From a virus, in IMG/VR virus record IMGVR_UViG_3300033075_001605: 51,741 nt of DNA; one strand, written 5' to 3'. Of the stretch, positions 377-34,066 are shown in pieces. Both the position numbers and the translations under genes were made by a program. Under the pieces are notes generated by a model, which was not told where the DNA came from, ran no database searches, and saw only the letters and a list, made by a program, of their open reading frames with translations. Position 1 is the stretch's first letter. Each line of letters begins with the position of its first letter.

Positions 377-755
377 CATGTACGGCGAAATGCCGTGCAC
401 TGAATGCGGCGAGATGTTCGTGCCGCGTGCAACTACTGACGGAGAAGCACTTGATCTGAGGTGTTCAAGGTGTGAAGCCTCGGACACGAGCATTTCTGAA
501 CACCTGCGTGAGTTCGTTGAACTGTTCCTCGAGCGTAAGATGCGAGAGGCAGACGTTTCAGACGGTTCTCGAGTTCCACACGGGTCATCAAAGCACATCA
601 AGGATCTTGAGGTACGCATCGCCGACCTTTCCAGGTGGCGTGACAAGCAGAGACGTGGTAGTGAAGCAAAGGCAAACTACTCTCGGCTCATTTCTCGCCT
701 AAAGGGTGAACTGTCGAGCGCTAAGCGCCAGGCTGCAAAAGCAAGGAGCAAGTGA
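351..755 (+). CDS. zinc-ribbon protein with C-terminal coiled-coil/basic region
   Basis: CTECGEMFVP...CSRCE is a CxxC...CxxC pair. The internal ATG at 351 (MEDNRYF) is preferred over the ORF-track start at 249, which overlaps the upstream gene. The stop overlaps the GTG start of the next gene. Confidence 0.45.
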   Translation: MEDNRYFVDMYGEMPCTECGEMFVPRATTDGEALDLRCSRCEASDTSISEHLREFVELFLERKMREADVSDGSRVPHGSSKHIKDLEVRIADLSRWRDKQRRGSEAKANYSRLISRLKGELSSAKRQAAKARSK

Positions 756-2905
756 GACACGAAGACCTTCGAAGGCTAGTGACTGAGTGGACGCACCTGA
801 ATGAAGGCGGCGCCGCAGGTCACCTGCAACACCTGTACGACAATCTGGAACTGACGTTTGGAGAGATCAAAGACGTCATCAGCAAGGCGTCTGAAGGTAA
901 GCTTGAGAAGGCATCAGAGAAGCTCGACGGCATGAACCTTGTCTTCACGTTTGACGTTGACGTAGGTCTACTCAGGGTTGCCCGCACGGGTTCAGACATC
1001 AAAAACGGTGGCATGGACGCCGCCGGGTTGGCAAAGAAGTTTTTTGGAAGGGGTAACGTTGAGGTTGCCTTTAACGCAGCGTTCAAGGTCCTAAACGAGG
1101 CGCTGACAACGTTGCCTGAAAACGTCAAGGCGCAGGTGTTTGGTGAAAACGGCAACAGGTGGTACTCGTTAGAGATCATCTATGCCGCTGATCCAAACAC
1201 TATCAGCTACGACTCCAACAACGTGGTTTTCCATGGGTGGCCGATCTTTAACGTCGATAACGACGGTGTTGTCGAACAGGTTGACGACGACGCAGGCGTT
1301 CAGGTTCTTTCGTCTCGCATCGAGCAGATGCAAAAGGCAATCAGCATGAAAGACTGGCGCGTTAGAGGGCCGTCGTTGCTAAACATGAAGCAGATTTCTG
1401 ACGGGACTGTCGCCAAGAAAGCGATCGACCAGATCAACGCTGCCATGTCCCAAGGCAACGTAAACGATGAAAGCACGGTGTTCGATTACTTACGCAGCCT
1501 GATGCAAGATGAGGTCGCAAACCTAAACCTTCCTGACAACGTGTCTTCGATGGTCGTCGAGCGCGCCATCGAAGCTCCAGACGCCCCGAGCGTACCAGAG
1601 ATCAAACGAGTTGCATCGCCAGACACACACCAAGCGATCGCAGCGTTCATCAGGTCGTCTGAGCAGCTCAAGCAGCAGATGATCGCGCCCATCGAAGGCG
1701 CGATACACCAGTTTGCAATCGAGGTGCTACGAGGCCTAAAGTCAACGTTGATAGCAAGGTCTGATGATGAAGTCGCGCGCCTCCGGACGCAGGTCGCCAA
1801 GGCGATCAAGGCGATTGAGGCCTCAGGCAACCAGGCGGCGATGGACGTGTTGCAGAAGGAGATGCAAAGGTTAGGCAACGTTGAAAACATTGGCGCAGCG
1901 ATGGAAGGCGTTGTCTTCTTTTACAAGGGCCAGGCGTACAAGTTTACAGGCGCATTTGCTCCAGCGCATCAGATACTGTCGTTGTTCAAGTATGGTCGCA
2001 AGGGCATCCCAAAGATGGACATGGGTGAGTCGATCACACGGCATGGACCCATCAACGAAGGCGGCTATGCGTTCAATAACGTCAGCTCAATTACGCTTAG
2101 CGACTTTAAAGAAACGTGGCCGTTCATAAAAGACGACTTGGAAACGTTGGGATGCACAAAGGTTGAGTTCATCGGCAGCACAGGCAAGAAACCTGTCATG
2201 GGTGATGTTGACCTTGCAGCAGAGTTTCCTGGCCCACGTGACGAGCTGCTTAGCTATGCACAGGACATGTTTGGCAAGGAAAACGTTGACAAGGTTGGCG
2301 CAACGATCGTCACCATCAGCTACCCGGTGCACGCAGCCGAAGGCGGACACACCGGCACAAGGGTTCAAGTCGACGTCATGCTTGGGAAAACAAGCTACCT
2401 TAAATGGTCGCGCTTCGGCACTTCGTCTGATCCTACGCACGTCGACTACTCTCCTGCAAAAGGTGTCGCAAGAAACGTGTTGATAAATGTGATCACGCGT
2501 TTTTCTGCAGGCCAAGACTTTCCAGGACAGCAGACGGAGCTTGACAGGACACGCTACGCTGTCGACTTTGACAAGGGTTTGTATAAGGTGACGCAGACGA
2601 AAAGGAACAAAAACCCTGGTGGTCCTCAGCTAAAGGATTGGCGCACCGTTGAACGAAAGCTGATCAGCGATGATCCTGACGAAATTGTAAGGATCATTCT
2701 TGGGCCATACGCAAAGGCTTCAAGCCTTCAAAAAGTGGAAGATGTCATGCTCGCCTTGCGCCGTTCAAGACCCAATGATGCCCAGCAAATCCTGCAGGCA
2801 TTTGCGAATGAGCTACGCGTGTTGCTAGAAAAGACGCCCAAGATGCTAGGCAACGATCCACAGGGAGTCATTAGGTATATCGACCAGTTGGTTGCAGGCG
2901 GATAA
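752..2905 (+). CDS. covalent nucleotidyltransferase superfamily protein (RNA/DNA ligase- or capping-enzyme-like), 717 aa
   Basis: The start is GTG. A KxDG motif I (ASEKLDGMNLVF) is present, and the later AAMEGVVFFYKGQAYKFTG resembles motifs IV/V (EGxV...KxxxxK). The N-terminus DLRRLVTEW fits the shared [LIV]xE motif. The ligase-versus-capping assignment is uncertain. Confidence 0.45.
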   Translation: MRHEDLRRLVTEWTHLNEGGAAGHLQHLYDNLELTFGEIKDVISKASEGKLEKASEKLDGMNLVFTFDVDVGLLRVARTGSDIKNGGMDAAGLAKKFFGRGNVEVAFNAAFKVLNEALTTLPENVKAQVFGENGNRWYSLEIIYAADPNTISYDSNNVVFHGWPIFNVDNDGVVEQVDDDAGVQVLSSRIEQMQKAISMKDWRVRGPSLLNMKQISDGTVAKKAIDQINAAMSQGNVNDESTVFDYLRSLMQDEVANLNLPDNVSSMVVERAIEAPDAPSVPEIKRVASPDTHQAIAAFIRSSEQLKQQMIAPIEGAIHQFAIEVLRGLKSTLIARSDDEVARLRTQVAKAIKAIEASGNQAAMDVLQKEMQRLGNVENIGAAMEGVVFFYKGQAYKFTGAFAPAHQILSLFKYGRKGIPKMDMGESITRHGPINEGGYAFNNVSSITLSDFKETWPFIKDDLETLGCTKVEFIGSTGKKPVMGDVDLAAEFPGPRDELLSYAQDMFGKENVDKVGATIVTISYPVHAAEGGHTGTRVQVDVMLGKTSYLKWSRFGTSSDPTHVDYSPAKGVARNVLINVITRFSAGQDFPGQQTELDRTRYAVDFDKGLYKVTQTKRNKNPGGPQLKDWRTVERKLISDDPDEIVRIILGPYAKASSLQKVEDVMLALRRSRPNDAQQILQAFANELRVLLEKTPKMLGNDPQGVIRYIDQLVAGG

Positions 2906-2919
2906 TTACGGATAGCAAA

Positions 2920-4272
2920 ATGGGAACTTTACGAATGAAGCTGCTTGTGCGAGAAGCAATCAGGCAAGCGCTCCTAGAAGACGACGCGGCCCGAGCCGGA
3001 GAGGCTTTGAAAGCTGAAGAAAGGGCAGCCAAGGAAGCCTATGAAAAGGCGGTTGCTGACCTTGCTCGTTGGGACGCGGAGGAGGCAAAACGCGTTGCGC
3101 TTATCAACAGGGCACAAGAGCTAGGCATAAAGCTGGGCGACAACAAGGCGTCAAAAGACCTTAGAAAAGACCCAAAGTATAGCTATGACGCTAAGGTCCT
3201 TCAAGGTAAGCGAGAAACGTTAGTAAAAAAGCTTGAAAAAGCAAAGGATGAATACGGCGCATATGACGCCGCCGCAGTCTCATATAAGCGAGTAGCATCT
3301 GGCGGCGCAAAGACGCCAGCCAACATGCAGATGCCGGACCCTAAAACAAAGGTCTACATGCCGATCAGCGAAATTAAGCCGTTGAGGTGGTATAGCTGGT
3401 CTGATCCACGCTGGGCCAAGGCAGTCAAGAACATTGCCTTTGGAAGCAGCAAAGAAAAGTCTGGGGTTGAACAGGCCGGCACAGGACCGGGAGAAGAACG
3501 CCTCGCCAAGATTTTCGGCGGAAAGGTGCAAGGCGGCGGCGTGTCGTTTGACGTTGTGACGCCTGACGAACGTCGATGGGAGGTCAAGGCGTTGGAGACT
3601 GCCAGCACGTTGATCAGGCCAGGCACAGAGGGCCGCGCAGCCTTTGAAAAGCCTCGGAAGCAGCTGCAACGGATCATGATCCAGATCCGTAACTTTAGCA
3701 TCATAACGAAGAAGCTAGGGCCTGACGTAGCTGACAACCAGGACGACGTTGCGATCCTGAAATACATCTCTGATTTCATTGATGATGAGTTTGAGATGTT
3801 TGCCAAAGGTGAAATCTCGCCTGAACGTTTCAAAGGCCTGCGCGCGGTCCTGAAGGCGTTGTCTTTCTTGAAAAAGAAATGGATGCCAGGAGAAAAGCCG
3901 TCAGATGAACTGATTGTTGGGCTTGCTGACAAGAAAATTCCAGTTGACCAACCTACGTTCATTGACGTAGCAAAGAGGGTTCAGAAGTCGTCTCCTGACG
4001 TTGACGTGCTTAGCAACTTTGAGGAGAAAGAGGTAGCGTGCGCAGCATTGAAGGACCCTGCGTTTGAAAACCCGACAGGGTTTTTCAATGACTGGTTTGA
4101 AACAGTCGATATCAACAGGGTCTTTGAGCAAGTTGACGGCGTCTTCATCGTCAACTCAAAAGGCTTCAACATGGTGCCAAAGCCGCTGTTTCAAAAGGCG
4201 TTTAAGTTTAGCCAGGTTAGCCAGCTCGTTCCAAGGTTTAGGTTCGTCTTCTACGCTTCGTCAGAAGAGTGA
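2920..4272 (+). CDS. hypothetical protein, possible PD-(D/E)xK-type nuclease fold
   Basis: 450-aa ORF. The N-terminus MGTLRMKLLVREAIRQALL carries the shared motif. An internal FDVVTPDERRWEVKALE is D...E-V-K-like. The nuclease assignment is weak. Confidence 0.6.
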   Translation: MGTLRMKLLVREAIRQALLEDDAARAGEALKAEERAAKEAYEKAVADLARWDAEEAKRVALINRAQELGIKLGDNKASKDLRKDPKYSYDAKVLQGKRETLVKKLEKAKDEYGAYDAAAVSYKRVASGGAKTPANMQMPDPKTKVYMPISEIKPLRWYSWSDPRWAKAVKNIAFGSSKEKSGVEQAGTGPGEERLAKIFGGKVQGGGVSFDVVTPDERRWEVKALETASTLIRPGTEGRAAFEKPRKQLQRIMIQIRNFSIITKKLGPDVADNQDDVAILKYISDFIDDEFEMFAKGEISPERFKGLRAVLKALSFLKKKWMPGEKPSDELIVGLADKKIPVDQPTFIDVAKRVQKSSPDVDVLSNFEEKEVACAALKDPAFENPTGFFNDWFETVDINRVFEQVDGVFIVNSKGFNMVPKPLFQKAFKFSQVSQLVPRFRFVFYASSEE

Positions 4273-4277
4273 TGCTG

Positions 4278-4905
4278 TCAAAAAAGACGTTTCTGGCTTA
4301 GGACGCTACGAACGTAGCAACGAAGCAACGCCTCGTTTTTTGCACGGCTAGCCTTTCTAGGCTTAGGCTTTTCCACGGCTGTAGATGTCAAAATACGCCA
4401 TACTTCTTCGCCATCGATCGCTGGTGGCATAAACCTTAGGAACGACTGCTTGTCGCCGTCCTTAAGGTACCTTCGCATCTGCGTACCGCTAACATTTACT
4501 GTTGATGTTCTTTCGACTGGCCTGATGTGGATCCTTCCTTCGTTGAAGGCACGGGGTGCATACTTTTGAAGATAGGTCGCAGGAAAGTTTGCTGCTGCGT
4601 CCTTAACGTCAGAGTATAACCATAGCTCATCTTTCAGCCCAGCGACGTCAGCGTCCCCGATGTACTTGAATGCTTTTCCCACAGGCGATCCGCCAAGCTC
4701 TACGACAACGTTTGCCGGCAGCGTTGGCGTTATGATCCTTTCCCAGATCGTTTTCATCGCCTGCCCGCTGACCTCTTCCCTGTCTGACGTAGAAACATAA
4801 AGGAGCACCTCGTCACATTCCCTGGCAGCAAGGCGCACTAACCCATCATGGCCAGCGTGATACGGCTTTCCGCTTATCGGTACAATTCCAATTTTTGCCA
4901 CTAGT
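4278..4905 (-). CDS. HxGH-type nucleotidyltransferase (cytidylyltransferase-like; NMN/NaMN adenylyltransferase-like)
   Basis: IGIVPISGKPYHAGHDGLV contains the (H/T)xGH signature, and VSGTQMRRYL is an ISxTxxR-like C-terminal motif. The likely GTG start (VAKIGIV) has AAGGA upstream. The ORF-track ATG at 4961 would overlap the divergent NUDIX gene. Confidence 0.6.
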
Positions 4906-4939
4906 GTCAATCCTTGTGTGGGTGTAGTAGTAAATAAGG

Positions 4940-5410
4940 ATGAGCAAGAAGAACAAGGCACGCAAGCAGTCTATGTCTTGCGGCGCAGTTGCATGGAGGA
5001 TCAACGATGGCATCATCGAAGTCTTGTTGATCAAGCAGTTTGCGCATAAGGACAGCTGGGGAATCCCTAAGGGACACATCAACAAGGGAGAAACGTTGGA
5101 AGAATGCGCAATCCGCGAGGTCAGGGAAGAGACAGGGATCAACGTCTCCTTGGGCTCACGACTGCCAGACGCAAAGTCTTTTGTTAAGCACGAAGACAAG
5201 ACTGTTGTTTCATACTTGGCAAAGCCAGTCGGCAACCAAACCCCTTCGTCTGGTGATCCTGACTGCGAAGTGGCAGACGCAAGGTGGTTTTCTGTTGATT
5301 CTTTGCCAACGATACACCTGTACCAACGACCTTTGTTGGAGGAAGCAGTTAGGCTCATCAAGAAACTCGCTGCTGATGAAGCAGGGTCGTCAGACGAAGC
5401 GACCGAATGA
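4940..5410 (+). CDS. NUDIX hydrolase
   Basis: Nudix box GHINKGETLEECAIREVREETGI, which is Gx5Ex7REuxEExGu. Confidence 0.8.
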   Translation: MSKKNKARKQSMSCGAVAWRINDGIIEVLLIKQFAHKDSWGIPKGHINKGETLEECAIREVREETGINVSLGSRLPDAKSFVKHEDKTVVSYLAKPVGNQTPSSGDPDCEVADARWFSVDSLPTIHLYQRPLLEEAVRLIKKLAADEAGSSDEATE

Positions 5411-5634
5411 ACGACCAGCTTCTTGACGCGATTGTGTTTGTTTTTAGCTACGCTTCAAACGTTGACGACTGGATCACTATCAAAAAGGAGCTTCTAAAGG
5501 CGCTCCCGCCAGACGCTAGAACGTCCTTTTCGATACGTGATCCTAAGACCAAACGTCAGGTGCCAAATGAGCTTGAAAAGCTGATCGCTGCAAGGTGGGA
5601 AGAGATGACTGGGCGTCAGGTCCTATTTAGGTAG
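5407..5634 (+). CDS. hypothetical protein
   Basis: 75-aa ORF whose ATG overlaps the upstream stop (ATGA). Confidence 0.5.
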   Translation: MNDQLLDAIVFVFSYASNVDDWITIKKELLKALPPDARTSFSIRDPKTKRQVPNELEKLIAARWEEMTGRQVLFR

Positions 5635-5635
5635 C

Positions 5636-6649
5636 ATGACACTTAAGCTGCTGCGAGAATACATCCAAGCTGTTCTGGTTGAAGACATGGGCGGCGACTA
5701 CGGCGGGCTTGGGTTTGGTGACGCCATGGGCGACATGCCGTATGGGATGCATTTCGCCAGCCAAGACCAGCTTTACAAGATCTTCGTCAAGCCATTCGCC
5801 GACGTTGTCGGCGTTGCTGCTGGGAAAACAAAGGAGCTTTCGCAACGCGGCATCACAGCCCTTAACGTTGCGTTTGAAGCGATAGCAACAACGCTTATTC
5901 CGATCCTAAAAGACAGCTATGGCGAGATCTTTCAGAAAGAAAAGCAGCAGATCGACAAGATAAGGTCGGAGTACTCAGACGTCTATCAAGCCACCTGGGA
6001 TGCATTCAACGAGATGGATGTGGTCGTCGCAGCCTTTGCCTATCGCCCAGATCTCTTTTTGACTGCCAAGTTTGCTAAGCACGCGCCTAAAGCAGCAGCA
6101 AAGCTCTTAAGCGTTTTGTCGGGAGGTTCGTTGGACAACGTCCTTCATGGCTTGCTTAAAAGCAGCGGGAAGCGACACGTTGACCATTCAGAGGGTCCCG
6201 GCATGCCAATTGAATCTTTGATACGTGAGGAAAAGGACAACGAACCGTCAAAGCTTGAAAAGCTCATCACCAACAAAAAAATCAAGCAAGTGTTGGCAGG
6301 AAGCCCAAAGGTTCAGCAGCTTGCGAAGGTTGGCTCAGAGCTTGTCCAAGGAACGTTAAAGGACGTTTTTTCACAGGCCAACAACGTCATGAACGCAAAG
6401 TCGTTACAGGACCTGCAGTCTAAGCTTGGGAAAAAGCTGCCGGGCATTGACAAGCTTTCTCAGGTGCCTCAACGGGAACGTGAACAGGCTGAACAAAAAC
6501 TTTTGGTTGGCGTGCAGAGGGGAATGAAGGAGTTTTACGTAAAGCAGCTGGAAGGTCAGGTAAAAGCCGCCATCGAGGCAGGCGTGCCGAAGGATCACCC
6601 GTTTGTGGCTGATTACGTGAGCGTTATCTCAAAGATCAAGGGGCTGTGA
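5636..6649 (+). CDS. hypothetical protein (alpha-helical)
   Basis: 337-aa ORF. The N-terminus MTLKLLREYIQAVL carries the shared [LIV]xE motif. Confidence 0.65.
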   Translation: MTLKLLREYIQAVLVEDMGGDYGGLGFGDAMGDMPYGMHFASQDQLYKIFVKPFADVVGVAAGKTKELSQRGITALNVAFEAIATTLIPILKDSYGEIFQKEKQQIDKIRSEYSDVYQATWDAFNEMDVVVAAFAYRPDLFLTAKFAKHAPKAAAKLLSVLSGGSLDNVLHGLLKSSGKRHVDHSEGPGMPIESLIREEKDNEPSKLEKLITNKKIKQVLAGSPKVQQLAKVGSELVQGTLKDVFSQANNVMNAKSLQDLQSKLGKKLPGIDKLSQVPQREREQAEQKLLVGVQRGMKEFYVKQLEGQVKAAIEAGVPKDHPFVADYVSVISKIKGL

Positions 6650-7214
6650 TGTCAGCGATGACCGGGTTGCTGGTCGCTGCGTGCCAAAAGATGCCGTGGA
6701 GGCCGTGTTCAGCTAGCCTTGCGACTAACCTGTCCTGAACCACCTGCGTGTCTTCAGACAACCGTCGCAGCGCAGGGTGCCATTCGATGTATAGCTTGCT
6801 GATCAGCTTGATCGAGCCTTCGTTGATCATCTTTTCGAGCACCTCGTACTCCGAGCCTTCGATGTCTAACTTCAACACAACGTAATCGTCTGGTGTGAAA
6901 CGTTCACGTACCCACCTGCTGAAGTCGATGCACGGCACGTCTACGTGGATCTGCTTGTTGACGATGTATTTGTTTTCCCTGTGTAGCGAGGAGCTAATCG
7001 TCCACATCCCAGCGTTGTAAAACGTGATGGTGCCGTCCTCAATCCAGATGGCTTCATTGTGAAACTCAATGTCTGTCAGGTCCTTGAAGTCATCATGCAA
7101 CGAAACGTTAGGCTCAAACGAGATGATTGAGAACTCTTCCGCTTTTGGGTACTGGCTACGAAACAGCCTGACAGATTCGCCCTTGTGCCCGCCGCCGTCG
7201 ATGAAGTATTTCAC
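6636..7214 (-). CDS. FkbM-family SAM-dependent methyltransferase
   Basis: YFIDGGGHKGES...SFEPN is a glycine-rich SAM motif followed by FEP. LKLDIEGSEYEVL is typical of the FkbM domain. Confidence 0.7.
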   Translation of the reverse strand: MKYFIDGGGHKGESVRLFRSQYPKAEEFSIISFEPNVSLHDDFKDLTDIEFHNEAIWIEDGTITFYNAGMWTISSSLHRENKYIVNKQIHVDVPCIDFSRWVRERFTPDDYVVLKLDIEGSEYEVLEKMINEGSIKLISKLYIEWHPALRRLSEDTQVVQDRLVARLAEHGLHGIFWHAATSNPVIADITAP

Positions 7215-7255
7215 TGCTTAGGTATGCATGAAACAAGACAAGGCAAGGTGTTAAG

Positions 7256-7549
7256 ATGCTGTTCATGGGAAAACGAGCACCTAAGCAATATAACGTTGCG
7301 CATCTTCAGCCTGATGAGATCAATGCCCTTCGCGCCTTAGTCAAGGAGTTCATCACAAAGGTGTCTGCCGTTGATGCAGAGATCGAGCTTCTGAAGAACG
7401 ATAGGAAAGAAATCATCGAAGAGTATCAGGAAAAGCTTGACATGAAGACCCTGACAGCTGCGCTGAAGGTCATCAAGATCCAGCAAGGCGTGCAGCATCG
7501 TGACACATACGACCTGTTCATAGAAGCCTTGGAAGATCCCACGATGTGA
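7256..7549 (+). CDS. hypothetical coiled-coil protein
   Basis: 97-aa ORF with heptad-like K/E/L composition. Confidence 0.5.
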
Positions 7550-7562
7550 TGTAAGGAAACAA

Positions 7563-8828
7563 ATGATTACATCACGTTGGAAAGGCATCAAGCGTCCTTA
7601 CACAAAGAACGACGTAAGCAAGCTACGAGGGCGAACAAGCGTTGAACATACGCTGGCGCGCTTGGGCGCAAACAAGCTGTGGAGCCTGATGACCGAGCAG
7701 CCATACCTGGCTGCCTTAGGCGCGCAGACTGGTAACCAAGCTGTGCAAATGGTCAAGGCTGGCTTACGCTCCATCTACGTCAGCGGGTGGCAGGTCGCGG
7801 CAGACGCTAACCTTTCGCAACAAACCTATCCTGACCAAAGCCTTTATCCAGCCAACAGCGTTCCAACGCTTGTTCAACGGATCAACCAGTCGCTCTTAAG
7901 AGGCGAGCAGATCGAACACCTGGAAGGAAAGGACGATCGTGATTGGATGGTTCCGATCGTTGCAGACGCCGAGGCCGGCTTCGGCGGGCCGCTGAACGCG
8001 TTCGAGCTGATGAAGGGCATGATCGAGGCAGGCGCCGCGGGCGTCCACTTCGAGGACCAGCTTTCAAGCGAGAAGAAGTGCGGCCACCTCGGCGGCAAGG
8101 TGCTCGTGCCGTCGTCGCAGTTCATCCGGACGCTCGTCGCAGCCCGGTTAGCCGCAGACGTGATGGACGTACCGACGGTGATCGTTGCTAGGACAGATGC
8201 CTTAAGCGCCAAGCTAATCACCAGCGACATTGACCAAACAGACGCACAGTTCATCAGCAAGAAAGAAGGCAGAACGTTAGAAGGCTTTCATTACGTTGTT
8301 GGTGATCCGCTTCAACACGCTACACACCGTGCGTTGTCCTTTGCACCGTACGCTGATGTGCTATGGTTTGAGACGTCTGAGCCTAACCTTGCTGAAGCGA
8401 TGAGGTTTGCGGAAGACGTTCACAAACGCTACCCAGGTAAGCTGCTGGCGTACAACTGCTCGCCGAGCTTCAACTGGAAGAAAAAGCTTAGCCATGACGA
8501 CATTGCGTCCTTTCAGCGTGACCTAGGTGAGCTCGGGTATGCGTTTCAGTTTGTCACGCTGGCCGGTTTTCATGCAAATTCGTTGGCGCTGTTTCAGCTA
8601 GCAAACGACTATGCATCGCGTGGGATGTCGGCCTACGCTGACCTTCAGCAGAGAGAGTTTGCAGAAGAGAAAAACGGGTACACCGCGACGCGCCACCAAC
8701 GAGAGGTAGGCACCGAGTACTTCTCTGAGGTTTCTAGGGTAATCAGCTCTAACCAGTCGTCAACGCTCCCGATGGAGGCATCAACTGAACGAGAGCAGTT
8801 TGACGACACGACTCCTAAACATACCTAA
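7563..8828 (+). CDS. aceA: isocitrate lyase
   Basis: The catalytic KKCGH motif ([14 protein letters not shown]) is present. The order SGWQ..., DADAGFGG and VARTDA matches ICL over about 420 aa. AAGGAA lies 6 nt upstream of the ATG. Confidence 0.9.
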
Positions 8829-8876
8829 GCTAGGTTTGTTCTGAACACAGTGACAGTCTTGAAGTAGGATCGTTGC

Positions 8877-9269
8877 ATGAGCGAACAAGAAAAACCGCGA
8901 AAGACTTATACGGTTCGTTTGACAAGGGCGGAGCTCGTGCATCTACGAGATCTTTTTTCCGTTTTGCTTCCGTTGGAGATGAAGGAAACCCTTAGCCATC
9001 GTTTGGCACACCTTCAGGACCGTGTCATGGTGGAGGCTAAGCTATGGCAAAAGGTGGTGGCAGCGTGCCAGGAAGCCAACCTTCCGCTTGACGATGACGC
9101 CCCTGACTTTGTTGTCACTGCGTCCGCTGCGCCTCCGATCGGCGTGTTTGAGCTTTCGTCTGACGCTGAACAGCAGGACAACCTCCTTGAAAATGCTTTC
9201 GTGGCAGAGGAGGATGAAGAGGATGATGAAGAGGAAGGGTCAGACGACCTTGAGGAGGACGAGGAATGA
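8877..9269 (+). CDS. hypothetical protein with strongly acidic C-terminal tail
   Basis: The ORF ends ...EEDEEDDEEEGSDDLEEDEE. Its stop overlaps the next start (ATGA). Confidence 0.55.
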   Translation: MSEQEKPRKTYTVRLTRAELVHLRDLFSVLLPLEMKETLSHRLAHLQDRVMVEAKLWQKVVAACQEANLPLDDDAPDFVVTASAAPPIGVFELSSDAEQQDNLLENAFVAEEDEEDDEEEGSDDLEEDEE

Positions 9270-9781: not shown

Positions 9782-9798
9782 GCTTCAATAGTTATGAC

Positions 9799-10053
9799 AT
9801 GCGTATCAGGCTAGGTCAGCTTCGAAAGCTAATCAACGAAGCAGGCAAAAGGATCGGTGCGTCCGCAGCGTATCTCAAAAAAGAGAAGGTTCGCGAGGAG
9901 ATGCAGCGGTTCATCATTTCACAGATCTCCGCAGGGAATGTCTCAGACCAGGCGTCGTTGGATGCCTTTGTCAAGGACATCGAGCTGTCGATGACTGCGT
10001 TGAGGTCTGTTCCGTTCGATGTCTGGAAAAAGCTGGCTGGAAACAAAGTGTAA
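9799..10053 (+). CDS. hypothetical small protein
   Basis: 84-aa ORF. The N-terminus MRIRLGQLRKLINEA carries the shared [LIV]xE motif. Confidence 0.45.
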   Translation: MRIRLGQLRKLINEAGKRIGASAAYLKKEKVREEMQRFIISQISAGNVSDQASLDAFVKDIELSMTALRSVPFDVWKKLAGNKV

Positions 10054-18286: not shown

Positions 18287-19397
18287 ACAGATAGGATGGG
18301 GCGTGTATTCTGGCTATGAAGGCCCGTCGTTCCATGGCTCCCAGCGCTACGTTCTTCCAGCTGAGCCAACGAAGGCTGACAAGCAAATAGCTGTCATCAC
18401 AGCCGCGGAAGGCGGGACGTATGACGGCATCAACATGTATGACAGCGGCATCATCAGCGTCGGGTTGATCCAATGGATCGAGTCAGGCCAGCACAGCGTG
18501 TCGAGCATGCTTGGAAAGGTCGCTGAGCTAAACGGAATCGACTTTGTCGTGTCGTGTCTCGGCCCTGCGCTTGCGCTTAGCAACGCACGGTTCCAGAAGA
18601 ACTCACGTGGCAAATGGCGTTTTTTCTTCAACGATGAACGCGGCGAGGTAGACACGCAGGACAAGCAACGGCAGCTGTTCCTTGGGTGTTCCGGGAAGCT
18701 GGGCGCGTGGACCCCAGAAGCCAGGCTTCTTGCGAAGACGTGGGCAGCATGCGTTGCCAGCGTATGGTCTGACGAAGGCGCCAAGCGTGCGCAGGTTAGC
18801 TACACCGCAGATCGCCTGATGGGATTCGTGCTTCCTTTTGGAAAAGCAGAGCTCTTTGACCAAGAGCCTGACGAAGGCTGGGTCGCAGCCACCAGAGCAG
18901 TATTCGTGTCGTTTGCAGTGAACCTTCCAGCCGCTGCTGAGGCCCAGCTCAAGGCTGCAATCAACCAGCTTAAGTCGCCTAAATGGAGCCCAAGCTGGTG
19001 CATCGGCCTCATCAAGCAGCTGACGTTTGGCCCTAAGATTCGCATCTATCCTCAGCGATATAACAACATCAGGCCCACGGTGGAGCGTCTATGGGGAATC
19101 CAGCTGCCAAAGACGGCAGATTCGCTAGCGATCTGGAATGAGCCAGAGCCCGTCGTGGAGCACGCCCCTGGGCCCACCCAGGCCTCCCAGGACGCACCAG
19201 AGCGGCCTTCGAACGGCCCTCAGGCCGCCCAGGAGGGTTCAGAAAACCCAGGACAGGTTGACCTACCTTTTCAGGACAAGGGCCTCGTGCTGTCACCTGT
19301 GGGTGATGTTTCGTCAGCGACTTCAAAGGCAAATTTCTGGAACGTTATCACGCAGATCATTAATGCTATCGTTCGCTTTTTTGTGAGGGCGAAGTGA
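18273..19397 (+). CDS. hypothetical protein, possible cell-wall hydrolase (GH108-like EGG motif) with C-terminal amphipathic helix
   Basis: AEGGTYDGINMYDSGIISVGLIQW resembles the EGGYxxxxxDxGGxTxxGI motif of GH108 lysozymes. The C-terminus is FWNVITQIINAIVRFFVRAK. The functional call is weak. Confidence 0.35.
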   Translation: MVSVEQIGWGVYSGYEGPSFHGSQRYVLPAEPTKADKQIAVITAAEGGTYDGINMYDSGIISVGLIQWIESGQHSVSSMLGKVAELNGIDFVVSCLGPALALSNARFQKNSRGKWRFFFNDERGEVDTQDKQRQLFLGCSGKLGAWTPEARLLAKTWAACVASVWSDEGAKRAQVSYTADRLMGFVLPFGKAELFDQEPDEGWVAATRAVFVSFAVNLPAAAEAQLKAAINQLKSPKWSPSWCIGLIKQLTFGPKIRIYPQRYNNIRPTVERLWGIQLPKTADSLAIWNEPEPVVEHAPGPTQASQDAPERPSNGPQAAQEGSENPGQVDLPFQDKGLVLSPVGDVSSATSKANFWNVITQIINAIVRFFVRAK

Positions 19398-19690
19398 GCG
19401 CACTCCTTAATGAATACATCAAATGTATCATCGTTGAGTTAAAGCGCGATGAAAACATGATCGACCTCCTGAAGACAACGCGCCTGAGGAAGCAATTCCC
19501 AAACGTGGAAAAGATCGCTGATGAATGGGCCAAGAAGCAGAAGGGTTTCAAGCAGGATCAGCTGCAATCAGCCCGGACGTTCGTCAACAGCAGGTTTCCA
19601 AAGCTGTATGCACAATCGCATGAGGATTTTGCTGCCACCAAACGAGCGTTGTTCGATGCGTTGAGCAGCCGGTTTAAGGTTGAGAAATGA
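19394..19690 (+). CDS. hypothetical small protein
   Basis: 98-aa ORF. The N-terminus MSALLNEYIKCIIVEL carries the shared [LIV]xE motif. It overlaps its neighbours by 4 nt. Confidence 0.5.
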   Translation: MSALLNEYIKCIIVELKRDENMIDLLKTTRLRKQFPNVEKIADEWAKKQKGFKQDQLQSARTFVNSRFPKLYAQSHEDFAATKRALFDALSSRFKVEK

Positions 19691-20214
19691 ATCAAAAGCT
19701 TTTACGAACATTTATTCGAGAGGTCATCAGCGATGGGTTCGGTAACAAGAACCTTGGAAAGGATGCGCCGGGCGGGAACCTTAGGTACGATGTTCAGGTC
19801 ACCGCGCGCGGCACCAACATCCTTGACGATGAAGCCGAAGAGGCATCTAAGCCTAGGCCTCGTGCAGCATGCGTGTTAATCATCGCTGACGACGGCAAGG
19901 TGTTGGCTGTCTCTAGGCGGAACGACCCAACCGCGTTTGGGCTTCCTGGGGGCAAGGTTGACCAGGGCGAGCAGCCAGCTGACGCAGCAGCTCGAGAGCT
20001 TAAGGAGGAAACCGGCCTAGACGTTGCTGGGCTTCGTCCCGTCTTTGTTCACAAGGAAGATGACGGCTACGAGACCACGACGTTTATCGGAAGCGTCAGC
20101 GGGAAAATTGACACCAAGGAAGAGGGCGTCATCCGTTGGGTCGACCGTGAGGTGCTGTTCAACGGGCCGTTTGGAAGGTACAACCGCAAGCTGTTTGCTA
20201 CGTTGGGCCTTTGA
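19687..20214 (+). CDS. NUDIX hydrolase (second copy)
   Basis: Nudix box GGKVDQGEQPADAAARELKEETGL. The N-terminus MNQKLLRTFIREVI carries the shared motif. Confidence 0.75.
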   Translation: MNQKLLRTFIREVISDGFGNKNLGKDAPGGNLRYDVQVTARGTNILDDEAEEASKPRPRAACVLIIADDGKVLAVSRRNDPTAFGLPGGKVDQGEQPADAAARELKEETGLDVAGLRPVFVHKEDDGYETTTFIGSVSGKIDTKEEGVIRWVDREVLFNGPFGRYNRKLFATLGL

Positions 20215-20236: not shown

Positions 20237-20917
20237 ATGCGGCAGATTAGGGTTCTTAAAGAAGCTATCCGGATGATGGTGGAGGCTGCTGTCAGCGGCG
20301 AGCAGGCAGTGAAAGAAAGGCTTGCGTTGTTTCGCGGCCAGAAAGGGCCTCATTACTACTACGTCCTATACGACCCCAAGGCGTTGGTTGACGAAGCGAG
20401 CGACGATGGTTTCTTCAGCATGAGGTTCAACCGTTCGCTAGACCAGATCGTGCTAGGATTTATCAAGGGTGAGCCTCGCGAAGGAGCCTGCAACGACGCC
20501 ATGGAAATCAAGATGTCAGCTGCGTCAAAGGGTTACGGCCCGTTGATGTATGACATCGTCATGAGCGACGGAACAGGCGGAATCGTGCCTGACAGGATAA
20601 GCACGTCAGGAAGGGCAAAAAACGTCTGGAAGCACTATTCGTCAAAACGCGCTGACGTCAAAAAGGTGCCGCTGGATGACTACGACAACCCCAAGACGCC
20701 TGACCCATGCGACGACTGCCAAATCGTCAAAGACGATGATGACGTCTTGAACTACTCGTACGACGGCCCAGGGCAGCCAGCAGCTAAGTCTAAGCTCATG
20801 AACGTGCATGACGATGTCGTCGCTGGCCTCGTAGAACGCGGCATCAAAAGGCAGGCGATTGAGCTGATGTTGATGCGGATGGGCCAGGCATTGTTTGACG
20901 CCAAGTACAGTGAATGA
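20237..20917 (+). CDS. hypothetical protein
   Basis: 226-aa ORF. The N-terminus MRQIRVLKEAIRMMVEA carries the shared motif. Confidence 0.6.
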   Translation: MRQIRVLKEAIRMMVEAAVSGEQAVKERLALFRGQKGPHYYYVLYDPKALVDEASDDGFFSMRFNRSLDQIVLGFIKGEPREGACNDAMEIKMSAASKGYGPLMYDIVMSDGTGGIVPDRISTSGRAKNVWKHYSSKRADVKKVPLDDYDNPKTPDPCDDCQIVKDDDDVLNYSYDGPGQPAAKSKLMNVHDDVVAGLVERGIKRQAIELMLMRMGQALFDAKYSE

Positions 20918-25257: not shown

Positions 25258-25295
25258 CAGTGAAAATGTGCTCAAGAAAAGTTTAAGGATAGCTC

Positions 25296-26324: not shown

Positions 26325-26337
26325 CGTTCTAGCTAAC

Positions 26338-26541: not shown

Positions 26542-26637
26542 CTTAACGTCATCCTCAGAGAACGCGCTATGTTAGCAACGCTCAGCGTAACAAATACATG
26601 CCATGCAGTAAGGTGATCACCTTCACAAGGATCCTAA

Positions 26638-28029: not shown

Positions 28030-28080
28030 TTAAGGAAAAAGCAAGGCGTTACACAAATCCTTAAAGGAGCTTGTTAGTTA

Positions 28081-28365: not shown

Positions 28366-28398
28366 CACAGCTCATGCGTTTGAGTTAGTATCAAGCTC

Positions 28399-30439: not shown

Positions 30440-30572
30440 CCTTGTCGTTTTTCGAAACGAACGCAAAGACATTGGGATCGTTTTAGCGTTTGCTAGCCTA
30501 GAAGATACTGGGCTGTTGATCAAACCGATCATGGTGTTTTGGGTCAAACGAGAGCTTGCATCGTTTTCATAG
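30414..30572 (+). CDS. small protein, xPGDLV family member (52 aa)
   Basis: MSRCLKTGDLVVFRNERKDIGIVLAFASLEDTGLLIKPIMVFWVKRE. The ATG overlaps the upstream stop. Confidence 0.4.
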   Translation: MSRCLKTGDLVVFRNERKDIGIVLAFASLEDTGLLIKPIMVFWVKRELASFS

Positions 30573-30616
30573 CACCATGAGACTTCGTTGATGGTTGTAA
30601 ATACTACGGTGTAAGG

Positions 30617-30901
30617 TTGAATAAACACGTTAGCCATGATGACGCGTGTGGCGCATGTCATAGAAGGCATGAGCCTGGGCGCTGTGAACGAAATGGTCAG
30701 CCACGGTTCTTGGTTGGTGACATGGTCATAAAAGAGCCACAGACAGCCGTCTACAAGCTCCGCGGCATCGTTGTAGGCGTTAGAAGAAGCAACCAGAACG
30801 CCATACTTCCCCCAGAGATCTACCCTTACGTCTACTACGTCTTTTTTAACGACGGCATCCTAGAAGGGCCGCTGTTTCATAGCCAACTTTCGGCCTCTTG
30901 A
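30617..30901 (+). CDS. small protein, family-like (Cys-rich N-terminal extension)
   Basis: FLVGDMVIKE...GIVVGV...YYVFFNDG. Confidence 0.4.
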   Translation: MNKHVSHDDACGACHRRHEPGRCERNGQPRFLVGDMVIKEPQTAVYKLRGIVVGVRRSNQNAILPPEIYPYVYYVFFNDGILEGPLFHSQLSAS

Positions 30902-30955
30902 CCTTAGTCGCTCTGGCGGCTCCCGAGGCCAGCCGAGACCGTGATCATACCCTTC

Positions 30956-31249
30956 TCAGGGGTCCCCAGAATAATCTTCTTTGCCGCGGTAAGGTTTCCC
31001 CCAGTTAAGCGGCACGCAATAATCTGAATGAGAGAACCAGCAAAGCCTGCCGTTCACGACGACAAGAAGGCGCACCTTTTGACCAGCAAAAAACGTTGCA
31101 ACGAGAAGCCCTAGCGTTCCTTCAACGATCTTTATGCGATCGTCGTCTTCGCCTCGAAAGTCCGGCCCTTGCCATGACACAAGCGTCCTTTGTGACACCA
31201 AGATGTCGCCGGGAACAAACGTTATTGCGTTGAAACGTTTTTCTTCCAT
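30956..31249 (-). CDS. small protein, xPGDLV family member
   Basis: FVPGDILVSQRTLVSWQGPD...LLVVVNGRLCWF. Confidence 0.45.
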   Translation of the reverse strand: MEEKRFNAITFVPGDILVSQRTLVSWQGPDFRGEDDDRIKIVEGTLGLLVATFFAGQKVRLLVVVNGRLCWFSHSDYCVPLNWGKPYRGKEDYSGDP

Positions 31250-31301
31250 CTACAACCTAAGACACTACCATTTGCTTTGGTGCGTTGCACTGTGATACAA
31301 T

Positions 31302-31664
31302 TTGCTGATGGAGCTTGAGCTACAAGGGCTTGCTGAAACAAACGTTGAAGGAAACGTTGAGATCATGCTTCCTAGCTTTATGATGATGCTACCACAAGGA
31401 ACGCTTGACACGATCGACGCCGCAAAGACGCCTGACGCCGTCGTTGCTGCTGGCTTGCGCCCAATGACGACTGAGGTCGTTTTTCTAACCGCTGACGGAA
31501 GGCTATTTTGCCTTGACGCAGCAGCGAACGGCTTGCCCGTTGGCGAGGCAGCTCCCTCTGGATCTGGAGAGCTGTTCACCATCAATGATGTTCTCAACGT
31601 TCCTGTGGCATGGGCGCTGCAACGCTCTAGACTGCTAGCAACCGTTGACATCACAGATATGTAA
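31302..31664 (+). CDS. hypothetical protein
   Basis: 120-aa ORF on the same strand as infA. The antisense ORF is low-complexity. Confidence 0.45.
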   Translation: MLMELELQGLAETNVEGNVEIMLPSFMMMLPQGTLDTIDAAKTPDAVVAAGLRPMTTEVVFLTADGRLFCLDAAANGLPVGEAAPSGSGELFTINDVLNVPVAWALQRSRLLATVDITDM

Positions 31665-31701
31665 TTTTAACACTAAGTGTGTTATTGTGGTATACAGAGG
31701 C

Positions 31702-31962
31702 ATGGCAAAAAAGAAAAACAACAGGTACGTTGAGCAGGACCAAACACGCGACGATCGGCTAGAGCTTGATGGCGTCGTTGAAGAGGCGATGCCAAGCACC
31801 TTGTTCAAGGTAAGGTGCATCAGCGGGTTGATGGTGATCTGCACGCTAGGTGGAAAGCTACGTATCAACAGGATCAGGGTGCTCCCTGGCGACAGGGTAA
31901 AGATCGAGGTTTCTCCTTACGACACAAGCAAGGGACGCGTTGTATGGAGGGAAAAATCTTGA
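31702..31962 (+). CDS. infA: translation initiation factor IF-1
   Basis: LGGKLRINRIRVLPGDRVKIEVSPYDTSKGRVVWR matches [34 protein letters not shown] of bacterial IF-1. The internal ATG with GAGG upstream is used. Confidence 0.85.
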   Translation: MAKKKNNRYVEQDQTRDDRLELDGVVEEAMPSTLFKVRCISGLMVICTLGGKLRINRIRVLPGDRVKIEVSPYDTSKGRVVWREKS

Positions 31963-31975
31963 CGTTTGTTGCAGC

Positions 31976-32233
31976 ATGACCTATGGCGTTGCAATAGTTA
32001 GCTACATGACTGCGCTAAAGGTTGCTAGCTATGTTGGTGCAACGTTAACGTTGCTGACGTTTGTTTGTTCGTTAGCGTTTAGTGCATGGTTTGCGATCGC
32101 CAGGCACCACGTAGGAGGCAGCCTTTGCCTTCTTGCGATCGCAGTAATCGATGCATTGTTTGTCGCCTGGCACGACTGGCCGCTGATCTGGAAGCCGTTG
32201 TTCGTCAAGCCTGAGACGCAGGCTAAGCCTTGA
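31976..32233 (+). CDS. small membrane protein (2-3 TM)
   Basis: MTYGVAIVSYMTALKVASYVGATLTLLTFVCSLAFSAWFAIA... Confidence 0.4.
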   Translation: MTYGVAIVSYMTALKVASYVGATLTLLTFVCSLAFSAWFAIARHHVGGSLCLLAIAVIDALFVAWHDWPLIWKPLFVKPETQAKP

Positions 32234-32438
32234 CAAGCATGCTTGGGTGGTAGCAGTAGCGTAAGCCGCTAGGTTGCCATCGTACGTCCAACTCGGGTCC
32301 CTTTTGGGACCCGAAGTCAGTTGGGCCTTCGACAACGCCTACGCATTCGCCAAACTCGTCTACGTGTTCCTTGCTATCGTTTGTTCGAAGCTCACGTTTC
32401 AAAGCCTCGCTCATCTTGACAAGCGTTCCAGCCTTCAT
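32223..32438 (-). CDS. small protein, family-like
   Basis: MKAGTLVKM...GVVEGP...VRWQPSG. Confidence 0.4.
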   Translation of the reverse strand: MKAGTLVKMSEALKRELRTNDSKEHVDEFGECVGVVEGPTDFGSQKGPELDVRWQPSGLRYCYHPSMLVKA

Positions 32439-32439
32439 A

Positions 32440-33204
32440 TTAGTACGTACCTACGTCTCCATCGATGAGGTATAGCTCACGGTCTGCTCTCTTGCTACCA
32501 GTCGAAGGGCACGGTTGACGAACGATTTGGTTGTCTGGCAACACAAATGCCCAAAGCTCCTTCCCAAAGCACCCTCCGCCGTCGATGCCCACGACGAGGT
32601 GGTTGACTAGCGGCTTGTTGAGGACGCTGTGACCAAAGATGATTCTTTCTGGGCCGCCCCAAAAATGCGTCCAAAACCTCCAATCTTTTTCACTTGAAGG
32701 CACCCTGCTTGGCCAAAGCGTTTGTTCAACGCCGTTGGGACTCTTGGCAAACGGTCTGATCGACTGGATGTGAAGCAGGTGACGTTTGCTCTGTTGTTCA
32801 AGCGAACGTTGCGGCCAGACGCCTGCGTGTACGCAGGCAGCGTTGTATTCTGGAAGCCTGATGTACATCGGAAGCGTTCTCATGTACTCATAGTGACGAG
32901 GCTTTAGCTGCGAGCGCGTGCGCATGTGCGACTCTGATCTGACGTCTGCCTTGCCGTGTTGTTTTTCTGCGTCATCGTATGAAAGGTGACGTTCTTCATG
33001 GTTTCCTAGCACGCAGGCGGGAGCGCCTTGCTCCTTTTCAATTCGCATGGCTAGGTCAACGCAGCCAGCGCTGTCAGGGCCTCTATCCACGAGGTCGCCA
33101 AGCAGAATGATACGATCGTTCGCGGTTGCTTGGCATTTTTCAAGCAGCAGGTGCGCCTCGTGGCACATCCCGTGAAGGTCGCCTATCACAATCGTTCGTT
33201 TCAT
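32440..33204 (-). CDS. Ser/Thr protein phosphatase, metallophosphoesterase (lambda PPase/ApaH-like)
   Basis: GDLHG, GDLVDRGP and GNHE are the calcineurin-like motifs. Confidence 0.8.
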   Translation of the reverse strand: MKRTIVIGDLHGMCHEAHLLLEKCQATANDRIILLGDLVDRGPDSAGCVDLAMRIEKEQGAPACVLGNHEERHLSYDDAEKQHGKADVRSESHMRTRSQLKPRHYEYMRTLPMYIRLPEYNAACVHAGVWPQRSLEQQSKRHLLHIQSIRPFAKSPNGVEQTLWPSRVPSSEKDWRFWTHFWGGPERIIFGHSVLNKPLVNHLVVGIDGGGCFGKELWAFVLPDNQIVRQPCPSTGSKRADRELYLIDGDVGTY

Positions 33205-33407
33205 GAACTCGTAGTCTCCTCTGAGAATAATTCCTCAACGCGCCAGGCATCATGTAGCTTTCTAAGGTTTGAGTCAAAAAGCAAAAACGCCCCCCATTTG
33301 TGGCCTTTCGTTCCAAACCCATGCTTCCATGTGCTTACGACCAAAGCAAAAACCTTTCGCTTAGCCCTTTGGTCGTAGGTTGTCAACAACGTTCCTGGCT
33401 TCCACAC
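33201..33407 (-). CDS. small protein, xPGDLV family member
   Basis: MWKPGTLLTTYD...ALVVSTW. The 4-nt overlap is with the start of the phosphatase gene. Confidence 0.45.
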   Translation of the reverse strand: MWKPGTLLTTYDQRAKRKVFALVVSTWKHGFGTKGHKWGAFLLFDSNLRKLHDAWRVEELFSEETTSS

Positions 33408-33413
33408 TGTCGT

Positions 33414-33698
33414 CTAGTTGATGTCGTAAAGATGCGTTGGGAGCTTGATGAGGCTAAGCTGCTCGATGCTGAGCTGCGCCGTTAGCTCCTTGTCCTCAAA
33501 GACGACGCCGAGGTGCTGCTCATTGATGTCACGGTGTTCAATGTTGATTGTGACGTCATTCCATTCTTTGACCTGCTCTAGGTCGACGGTACGCAACATG
33601 AACCACGCTGCCAACGAATCAAGCCTGAGGAACATGCAAACCTTTGCTAAGAACGCAAACAGCAGCTTAATCATGAGCTTTACTATATCACCCATCAA
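33414..33698 (-). CDS. hypothetical protein (hydrophobic N-terminus)
   Basis: 94-aa ORF. Confidence 0.35.
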   Translation of the reverse strand: MMGDIVKLMIKLLFAFLAKVCMFLRLDSLAAWFMLRTVDLEQVKEWNDVTINIEHRDINEQHLGVVFEDKELTAQLSIEQLSLIKLPTHLYDIN

Positions 33699-33742
33699 AG
33701 AAAGGTTACAATGCTGCTGTCACAAACTGTATATGTAAGCCT

Positions 33743-34066
33743 GTGAAGATCAAGCTGGGAGCGTTACGGCGCCTCATCAGGGAGGCGTTGTTGTCAGAGT
33801 GGGCAGGCTCGCCGCCCACAAAGCCGATGTTTGACTACGTCAACAACCCGTTGTCGCCAAACCTGGCTGACAGGGAACAGCTCGGAAGCCTGGCTAACAC
33901 CGATGAAGCGCCAGAAGATGACCTGCCAGATCACCTTCGAGAGCCGGAGCTAACGCCTGAGGAATGCTACGGTCCGGTTCCGCCAGACGCGCCTGATCCT
34001 TACGTCCAGGCTGATCCGTTTGTCAAGTCACATTCACCGATTCCGACGCCAGGGATCAGGCGTTAA
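33743..34066 (+). CDS. hypothetical protein
   Basis: The start is GTG. The N-terminus MKIKLGALRRLIREALL carries the shared [LIV]xE motif. The C-terminus is Pro/Asp-rich. Confidence 0.5.
   Translation: MKIKLGALRRLIREALLSEWAGSPPTKPMFDYVNNPLSPNLADREQLGSLANTDEAPEDDLPDHLREPELTPEECYGPVPPDAPDPYVQADPFVKSHSPIPTPGIRR

Follow-up and report, generated by a model that had tools for sequence, protein, structure and literature searches.

A shared N-terminal helix on unrelated proteins of a viral metagenome contig resembles the capsid targeting sequence of phage T4

The principle of capsid targeting has reportedly been known since work on bacteriophage T4 in 1996. The capsid targeting sequence (CTS) carried by T4's internal proteins IPI, IPII and IPIII and by Alt, like the propeptides of gp24, gp22, gp67 and gp68, is a short N-terminal peptide that is found on unrelated proteins and is processed by gp21. 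In IPIII, residues 4 and 7 serve targeting and residues 8 and 10 serve processing (PMC9026906), and the 10-residue T4 peptide is sufficient for packaging foreign proteins (PMC9026906; PMC3012670; PMC5694885). Here we describe a helical N-terminal sequence, called the tag below, that opens eight otherwise unrelated proteins encoded by the virus record IMGVR_UViG_3300033075_001605. This record is a complete metagenome contig of the Joint Genome Institute (51,741 bp, ~52% GC, dense gene packing) and is referred to as the window. The new elements are this particular consensus, its breadth over uncultured T4-like and huge phages, and the fact that enzymes, a NUDIX hydrolase among them, carry it, for none of which was a description found in our literature searches.

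Three other systems invite comparison. The encapsulation peptides of bacterial microcompartments (BMCs), such as those of PduP, PduD and EutC, consist of an N-terminal amphipathic helix of ~18 residues with a flexible linker, and are carried by unrelated enzymes. However, these peptides are retained and serve a shell made of BMC-domain proteins, whereas the tag is tied to the assembly of an HK97-fold capsid. BMC-H and BMC-P shell domains (PF00936, PF03319) were absent from the 40 window proteins scanned by Pfam, a set that leaves out some small open reading frames (ORFs). The vault cargo protein PARP4 comes to mind because the window encodes a major vault protein (MVP) homolog, but the PARP4 INT region is a C-terminal domain of ~160 residues rather than a short helix, and the tag is distributed independently of MVP. 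In the phiKZ-like giants (phiKZ, 201phi2-1, SPN3US), N-terminal propeptides target many internal head proteins, and a gp21-related protease cuts them after Glu (PMC5694885). Most of these propeptides span 80-160 residues; they are mutually dissimilar except for paralogs such as gp53/gp54, and are cleaved at (S/A/G)-x-E. The tag, in contrast, combines a short length with a strong consensus and carries a hydrophobic residue before the x.

A first-pass annotation of the window had quoted eight similar N-termini, and all eight are present as written, in the ORFs beginning at positions 752, 2920, 5636, 9799, 19394, 19687, 20237 and 33743 (752, 19394 and 33743 have GTG starts). The proteins are indeed otherwise unrelated, as evident by a best pairwise BLASTP E-value of 0.11 once the first 25 residues are removed. 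The helix that they have in common can be written x-[LM]-[RK]-x-h-[IV]-x-E-h-h. Placed in register, the N-termini read x-[LM]-[RKN]-x-[LYFA]-[IV]-x-[EACM]-[AVIWM]-[ILV], with hydrophobic residues at i, i+3, i+4, i+7 and i+8 as in an amphipathic helix, and a Gly- or Pro-rich linker follows the helix in 5636, 19687, 33743 and 752. The regular expression [LIVM][RK]x[LIVMFYAT][IVL][RKNQTE]E matches 5 of 880 N-terminal positions versus 1 of 14317 internal positions (Fisher p = 4e-6, an optimistic value because this 7-residue expression was devised post hoc from the data), and residue-shuffled proteins yield a mean of 0.06 N-terminal matches. These counts and the shuffling are evidence that the similarity exceeds chance, with the same post hoc reservation about the expression. 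Seven of the eight proteins also rank within the top 14 ORFs for N-terminal hydrophobic moment.

The tag as we propose it would be an amphipathic helix of ~14-18 residues followed by a flexible linker, with a canonical form M-K-I-x-h-x-x-L-[KR]-x-[IL]-[IV]-[KR]-E and a short form M-x-x-K-L-L-R-x-[FY]-I-x-x-h-h. Support for the individual members is uneven. Scores from a leave-one-out position-specific scoring matrix (PSSM) are 15.7 for 33743, 13.7 for 19687, 13.6 for 5636 and 8.0 for 19394, and fall to 5.5 for 2920, 5.2 for 9799, 0.6 for 20237 and 0.0 for 752. A hidden Markov model (HMM) built from external sequences only gives ~19 bits for both 33743 and 9799 and 3.6 bits for 19687, and leaves the other five undetected. 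Two members are canonical (33743, 9799), five are diverged (20237, 19687, 5636, 2920, 19394) and one is marginal (752); homologs back four of the five diverged members, the exception being 19394. Among homologs of 33743, and likewise among those of 20237, the short form (MKNKILREYIKETIRE, MSETQLRRFIRQVLME) and the canonical form interchange, which links 5636, 19687 and 19394 to the same motif.

The first-pass annotation had also placed an [LIV]-x-E at residues 10-13 of every member. This holds for five of the eight, namely 752, 2920, 9799, 19687 and 33743, with the Glu at residues 12-14. It fails for the other three (5636, 19394, 20237), whose Glu residues are at 7-9 and 15-16. Its suggestion that the AAA+ ATPase encoded at 26638 is a weak member can be set aside, as neither the leave-one-out PSSM nor the external HMM gives a match, and we rejected this protein as a tag carrier.

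The tag is not confined to the window. IMG/VR was searched at the DNA level with a degenerate pattern that encodes M-K-I-x-h-x-x-L-[KR..]-x-h-I-[KR..]-E, a narrow MKI form with which other variants are under-counted. The pattern occurs on at least 120 stretches. Among the 137 matches listed, to which the following counts also refer, 118 are true ORF starts, and 111 are ORF starts that in addition show at least three features independent of the pattern. Positions that the pattern leaves free are biased, with Q or E at position 7 in 56 of 77, E at position 15 in 35 of 77, I, L or V at position 16 in 54 of 77, and T, K, S or R at position 4; the external consensus is L8-x-x-[IL]11-I12-x-E14. The tagged starts precede very different sequences of 46-465 aa, with up to four tagged genes per locus, on contigs of GC 0.29-0.61 and sizes up to 292 kb. 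When the pattern was sought in 596 Gb of bacterial and archaeal genomes, it returned mostly out-of-frame noise in AT-rich DNA; 16 of 126 cellular matches are canonical, on small contigs of metagenome-assembled genomes, and these contigs look viral. The motif is virus-specific and widespread.

Syntenic relatives of the window retain the tag on orthologs that are 40-60% identical. At the conserved sites, the six codons for Leu, the three for Ile and the two for Glu are all in use, and with increasing GC Arg takes the place of Lys. This full use of synonymous codons and the K/R shift with GC indicate that selection acts on the peptide and not on the DNA. The motif is thus real, N-terminal, selected at the protein level and carried by unrelated proteins. 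Among cultured phages, Cyanomyophage S-CAM4 has a compact head module with no additional tagged genes, and Mel-JY01 and Flavobacterium phage immuto have degenerate versions of the tag only.

The most telling evidence for a function comes from genes for head assembly, which were sought by tblastn with T4 gp20, gp21, gp23 and gp17 (proteins read from the T4 genome). Many tag-bearing loci carry a T4-type portal, terminase, Gp23 capsid protein and gp21-type prohead protease. The protease belongs to PF03420 (Peptidase_S77), and tagged genes lie directly downstream of it. The pattern is consistent over 80 head modules from relatives of roughly 200-280 kb, in which the first gene after the protease begins M(G/K)ITKxQLKxIVKECLVEIL, the second begins MKLTSxLLKKIIxEEV, the scaffold begins MSKQLYEEALAD and the major capsid protein (MCP) begins MKxFTLDQLAQGIRE. 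The same peptide opens two head-core proteins and the propeptide of the Gp23-type MCP, both in these relatives and in the window's own clade.

The head module of that clade was located with the MCP of a GC-matched relative (L371; fetched loci are numbered in this way) as query, and was not found with the protease of L030 or P0123 or with a DNA pattern for the MCP. It resides on IMGVR_UViG_3300037010_002844 (309 kb), which carries both the head module (L518) and a second locus (L005) with an MVP 71% identical to that of the window and a homolog of 33743; this contig is a member of the window's own MVP-bearing clade. The gene order in L518 is portal, a 284-aa gene, protease (E = 8e-19 to T4 gp21), two core proteins, scaffold (6941-8944) and Gp23 MCP. 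The first core protein contains MSRQQLKAIVKECLVEIL, the second begins MKLTSKLLKKIIEEEV and the MCP begins MSSKFFTLDQLAQGIRE. L371 has the same layout, and gp21-type protease, Gp23 and scaffold are present in L278, L291 and L371. The window itself, as a complete contig, encodes no gp21-type protease, scaffold or full-length capsid protein; these genes are seen in the same clade (L518) and in these three relatives. Two further contigs link head modules and window gene families: 3300034101_006325, a head-module relative, has 11 genes in common with the window, and 3300016471_001002 (211 kb) carries 33743- and 31645-family genes.

We also observed that the T4-type portal genes of L518 (38-3115, + strand) and L030 (1456-4755, + strand) encode proteins of 1025-1099 aa whose similarity to other portals is divided into two blocks. 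This arrangement suggests that something is inserted, for example an intein or an additional domain.

Given these data, it seems reasonably likely that the shared N-terminus is a T4-type capsid (prohead-core) targeting sequence, which is also the reading that the first-pass annotation had proposed. It is the best supported of the explanations considered here, because the tag opens core proteins and the Gp23 propeptide beside a PF03420 protease. The likeness to T4 extends to several features. The h-x-x-h-h-x-E spacing of the N-termini that gp21 removes in T4, as evident in gp24 (MAKINELLRE), gp22 (MLKEQLIAE), Alt (MELITELFDE) and gp67 (MEGLIEA), all taken from the T4 genome, recurs in 752, 2920, 9799, 19687 and 33743 and in the external consensus, with the Glu shifted in the other three. 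In both systems the peptide is present on core proteins and on the capsid propeptide, and the lineage described here encodes a gp21 homolog (PF03420), Gp23 and Portal_T4. There are also differences. The tag spans ~14-18 residues rather than 10, and its consensus, MKIxLxQLKxIIKEE, is different from and more basic than that of T4. Genes for core proteins follow the protease gene, whereas in T4 they precede it. Finally, the tag is far more numerous per genome than its T4 counterpart, occurs on enzymes such as a NUDIX hydrolase, and is kept across a very large uncultured lineage in which it is known from sequence alone.

By analogy with T4, we infer that the eight window proteins bind the scaffold core through the tag, are packaged, are cut at the Glu and are ejected. 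The helix would bind the scaffolding core during head assembly, such that the tagged protein becomes enclosed as the Gp23-type shell forms. The gp21-type protease (PF03420, Peptidase_S77) probably cuts after the Glu of h-x-E, and this would free the cargo inside the head. The cargo would include the NUDIX hydrolase, the large protein encoded at 752, which matches no curated family, and several orphans, all of which would be ejected with the DNA at the next infection.

Several observations weigh against this interpretation. Amphipathic N-terminal helices can serve other purposes too, and the external HMM strongly recognizes only two of the eight members. The Glu is not fixed either: three proteins (5636, 19394, 20237) have it at a shifted position, 3 of the 20 members of the 33743 family carry H, D or T instead, and the corresponding site in the MCP of L371 is GIQR, from which Glu is absent. 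There is no protease, scaffold or full-length capsid gene in the 51.7-kb window, so the link to head assembly is made through the clade and not within the same genome. A canonical tag was not found in any cultured or GenBank phage, and no PHROG family was found for the tagged proteins, which are orphans. Lastly, T4 has a handful of tagged proteins (the internal proteins, Alt and core proteins; an impression rather than a count), whereas a whole genome with the density seen here, eight tagged genes per 34 kb, would be expected to carry dozens, which exceeds that handful.

Some of the same observations would fit a generic helix that docks on, or oligomerizes with, a hub such as a scaffold or coiled-coil partner, or a membrane, with the protein neither packaged nor cleaved; enzymes might, for example, be concentrated at the assembly site. 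The heptad-like hydrophobic stripe, the high hydrophobic moment and the variable Glu agree with this idea, which we nevertheless regard as unlikely. The tag is found on the capsid propeptide and on core proteins beside the prohead protease, and an h-x-E followed by a linker is frequent. In T4, the corresponding capsid-propeptide and core regions are enclosed and degraded (PMC5694885, PMC9026906). Much less probable is a degradation or chaperone tag read by the AAA+ ATPase (26638) or the GroEL-like chaperonin (28399), which would set the time at which early proteins are removed or folded. Both the ATPase and the Cpn60 chaperonin are encoded in the window, but across genomes nothing ties their genes to the tag, and the tag occurs on stable structural proteins (MCP and core) within head modules.

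The presence of MVP raises the question of whether the helix loads cargo into a vault-like shell formed by the phage MVP (38389-41073, minus strand), in the manner of BMC encapsulation peptides, a destination that the first-pass annotation had offered as well. The distance between the MVP homolog and 33743, the tagged gene closest to it, is 4.3 kb, the layout of helix and flexible linker is like that of BMC encapsulation peptides in general, and MVP and tagged genes occur together in ten related contigs. However, the tag is present on more than 100 viral contigs with GC 0.29-0.61, whereas close MVP relatives are present on those ten only, and ~2.5 Mb of other fetched tag-bearing loci contain no MVP. 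The tag also opens capsid and head-core proteins, which are unrelated to vaults, and megaphage LR756500 has an MVP yet no such N-termini in 42 kb around the MVP gene. A vault-like destination is therefore very unlikely, and we rejected it on the basis of the spread of the tag past MVP-bearing contigs and its occurrence on capsid and core proteins. We give equally little credence to a variant in which, within the MVP clade, a head-targeting helix also, or instead, loads some of the tagged enzymes into the phage-encoded shell, which would be a second protein compartment whose cargo is addressed by sequence. Least credible of all is a nucleic-acid signal at gene starts, be it a translation-initiation region, a downstream box or a promoter. 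Many tagged genes lack a Shine-Dalgarno sequence, codons 2-3 are A-rich, and TA(N)TTA elements most often begin 11-12 nt ahead of the ATG (22 of 118 tagged genes). Against this, the conserved Leu, Ile and Glu draw on every synonymous codon, Arg replaces Lys at higher GC while the motif holds over GC 0.29-0.61, and hydrophobic periodicity is a property of proteins. A DNA-level signal was rejected because of this codon diversity and the K to R exchange with GC.

Independently of the tag's function, a TA(G/T/C)TTA element is located 5' of the window genes 5636, 9799 and 20237, and also of 2920, as well as of tagged genes in L015-L134. A match of the TAnnTTA type within 30 nt upstream is found for 36 of 118 tagged genes versus 160 of 993 control genes. 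The element could be a promoter for leaderless or short-leader transcripts, in which case the genes would form a shared regulon.

Returning to the putative targeting sequence, one of its two canonical carriers is the 107-aa protein of ORF 33743-34066 (+ strand, GTG start), whose tag MKIKLGALRRLIREALLSE (33743..33799) scores 19.4 bits with the external HMM. Its family alignment (A1, 20 members) has the consensus MKIxLGxLRRIIREA, and an AlphaFold2 (AF2) model computed on A1 gives a helix at residues 5-20 (predicted local distance difference test (pLDDT) 70-82) with the remainder as coil. Beyond the helix, these proteins of ~105 aa are Pro-rich and predicted to be disordered. We observed the invariant short motifs REQLG, LPDHL.EP, PEECYGPVPP, DPF.RD and IKRG in this family, and the body of the protein looks like a string of linear binding motifs. 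The other canonical tag, MRIRLGQLRKLINEAG (9799..9846, + strand), opens the 84-aa protein of ORF 9799-10053 and scores 19.3 bits with the external HMM. This gene fits the degenerate DNA pattern, for which the chance expectation in the window is 0 matches, and its ortholog in L003 begins MKVSIRQLRSLIEARI.

Among the diverged members, the 175-aa protein of ORF 19687-20214 (+ strand) was correctly described by the first-pass annotation as a NUDIX hydrolase (Pfam NUDIX E = 3.9e-19, domain residues 57-169) and has an N-terminal extension. Its tag MNQKLLRTFIREVIS (19687..19731; leave-one-out 13.7) is followed by a Gly-rich linker and then the NUDIX domain. An AF2 model of this protein, used for secondary structure only since it was made from a single sequence and has low confidence (pLDDT 34), places a helix at residues 3-17, coil to about residue 60 and then the fold. 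Together with the model for 33743, this predicts that the tag is an isolated helix preceding a disordered or linker region. The ortholog in L003 begins MLSDIKGLRALVREVL, the remoter orthologs in L100 and L102 are without a tag, and so is the other NUDIX gene of the window, at 4940. Pfam and PHROGs searches with the tagged proteins of the window returned nothing beyond this NUDIX domain.

The short-form tag MTLKLLREYIQAVLVE (5636..5683, + strand; leave-one-out 13.6) opens the 337-aa protein of ORF 5636-6649 and is followed by the Gly-rich linker DMGGDYGGLGFGD; orthologs begin MRPDDLLRELVTEILRED (L003) and MNDVLLREYVRRVLRED (L066). The tag most like it is the short form MSALLNEYIKCIIVE (19394..19438, + strand; leave-one-out 8.0) of the 98-aa protein of ORF 19394-19690, which has a GTG start. 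No homolog of 19394 was found in any fetched locus, and its membership is proposed from its own sequence and its likeness to 5636. For the 226-aa protein of ORF 20237-20917 (+ strand), the diverged tag MRQIRVLKEAIRMMVE (20237..20284) has a leave-one-out score of 0.6, and membership was accepted because homologs have a canonical start: those in L020, L110, L161, L183 and L210 begin MKIRL(G/S/D)ELRRIIRE, and that in L114 begins MSETQLRRFIRQVLME.

The 450-aa protein of ORF 2920-4272 (+ strand), for which no Pfam or PHROG family was found, carries the tag MGTLRMKLLVREAIRQALLE (2920..2979; leave-one-out 5.5), and the alternative register LVREAIRQALL scores 15.2. Its tblastn match in L003 (42% identity over query residues 72-447) maps to a 402-aa gene of the syntenic block, located at 3791-4999, that begins MTTLTIVRECIRDLV. 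The weakest member is the 717-aa protein of ORF 752-2905 (+ strand, GTG start), with the tag MRHEDLRRLVTEWTHLNE (752..805) and a candidate cleavage junction LNE|GG. Its homologs retain only the h-x-E-GG junction, as IEE|GG in L003 and LLE|GG in L093. This protein had been called a ligase-like nucleotidyltransferase, for which Pfam offers no support, and neither a Pfam nor a PHROG family was found for it.

Two motif-like stretches were noted away from N-termini. The cytidylyltransferase-like ORF 4278-4961 (- strand) has 227 residues and carries LLRCYVRSVLS at residue 212, near its C-terminus. A C-terminal extension of the L093 homolog contains DLLRQLIKEAVVD, and the homologs in L003 and L066 have neither. 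The stretch may represent the tag at a C-terminus; propeptides in that position occur on T4 Alt and gp21 as well. The 97-aa ORF 7256-7549 (+ strand) has an internal 14-residue stretch at residue 22 that is kept in L003 and other relatives and that may be an unrelated coiled coil.

The genes surrounding the tagged ORFs are typical of an accessory region of a huge phage. They encode two NUDIX hydrolases, an isocitrate lyase, a Thg1-like enzyme, an RNA ligase, a 5'-3' exonuclease, a UDP-glucose pyrophosphorylase, an HhH-GPD glycosylase, a trypsin-like protease, the AAA+ ATPase (26638), the Cpn60 or GroEL-like chaperonin (28399), a methionine aminopeptidase, a metallophosphatase and the MVP homolog. 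The window has no DNA match among GenBank phages. When the window, the tagged proteins and the consensus peptide were searched against these phages at the DNA and protein levels, the sole match was MVP in the megaphages LR756500, LR756501 and LR756503. The MVP homolog (38389-41073, minus strand, 894 aa) has MVP_shoulder (Pfam E = 1e-29), Vault_3 and Band_7 domains. Its relatives at 66-72% identity are found on ten IMG/VR contigs of up to 369 kb, and the megaphage proteins are distant relatives at 39-43% identity (43% for LR756500).

The methionine aminopeptidase is encoded at 34946-35680 (minus strand; Peptidase_M24 E = 5e-46). In the clade, a peptide-deformylase-like gene, recognized by eye from its signature GVGLAAPQVGINQRLIVVDP, is located in L518 at 5026-5529 (+ strand), between the protease and the tagged core proteins. 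From these two genes it appears that the phage encodes enzymes that process protein N-termini.

Capsid-like sequence was observed in the window in an unusual setting. Small ORFs of a multi-copy family (~30956-47400, - strand) have in common an SH3-like unit, ..PGxWVxH...G(V/M)LIA..DD.LxVLWS..P, and related loci for this family are L004, L005, L006, L007, L010, L012 and L013. The C-terminal end of ORF 36379-36654 (- strand), VMPNVNRVFPGLIKNDIIQVQPMSLPSTLFF, is 55% identical to residues 84-114 of a Gp23-type capsid protein, and the fragment at 36382-36474 is recognized by Pfam as Gp23 (E = 0.0076). In related loci, adjacent members of this family finish with different parts of the capsid protein (N-terminal, middle and C-terminal), one piece per small ORF. 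These pieces could reflect a split or permuted capsid gene, decoys or remnants. At the end of the window (48000-51741), GC reaches ~0.63 versus ~0.52 in the remainder, and three Arg/Pro-rich ORFs without a Pfam family are found there (48743-49321, 49318-50412 and 50888-51493, all on the minus strand); this high-GC stretch may mark a join made in assembly or may be of foreign origin.

Should the tag act like its T4 counterpart, sequence alone would be enough to list the proteins that a phage carries in its head and injects, and this across a very large uncultured T4-like lineage that includes genomes of 200-370 kb. The NUDIX hydrolase, the 752 protein and the orphans described above would, if injected, be candidates for takeover of the host within the first minutes of infection or for anti-defence functions, and the 15-residue sequence would provide a handle for packaging foreign proteins in large capsids.

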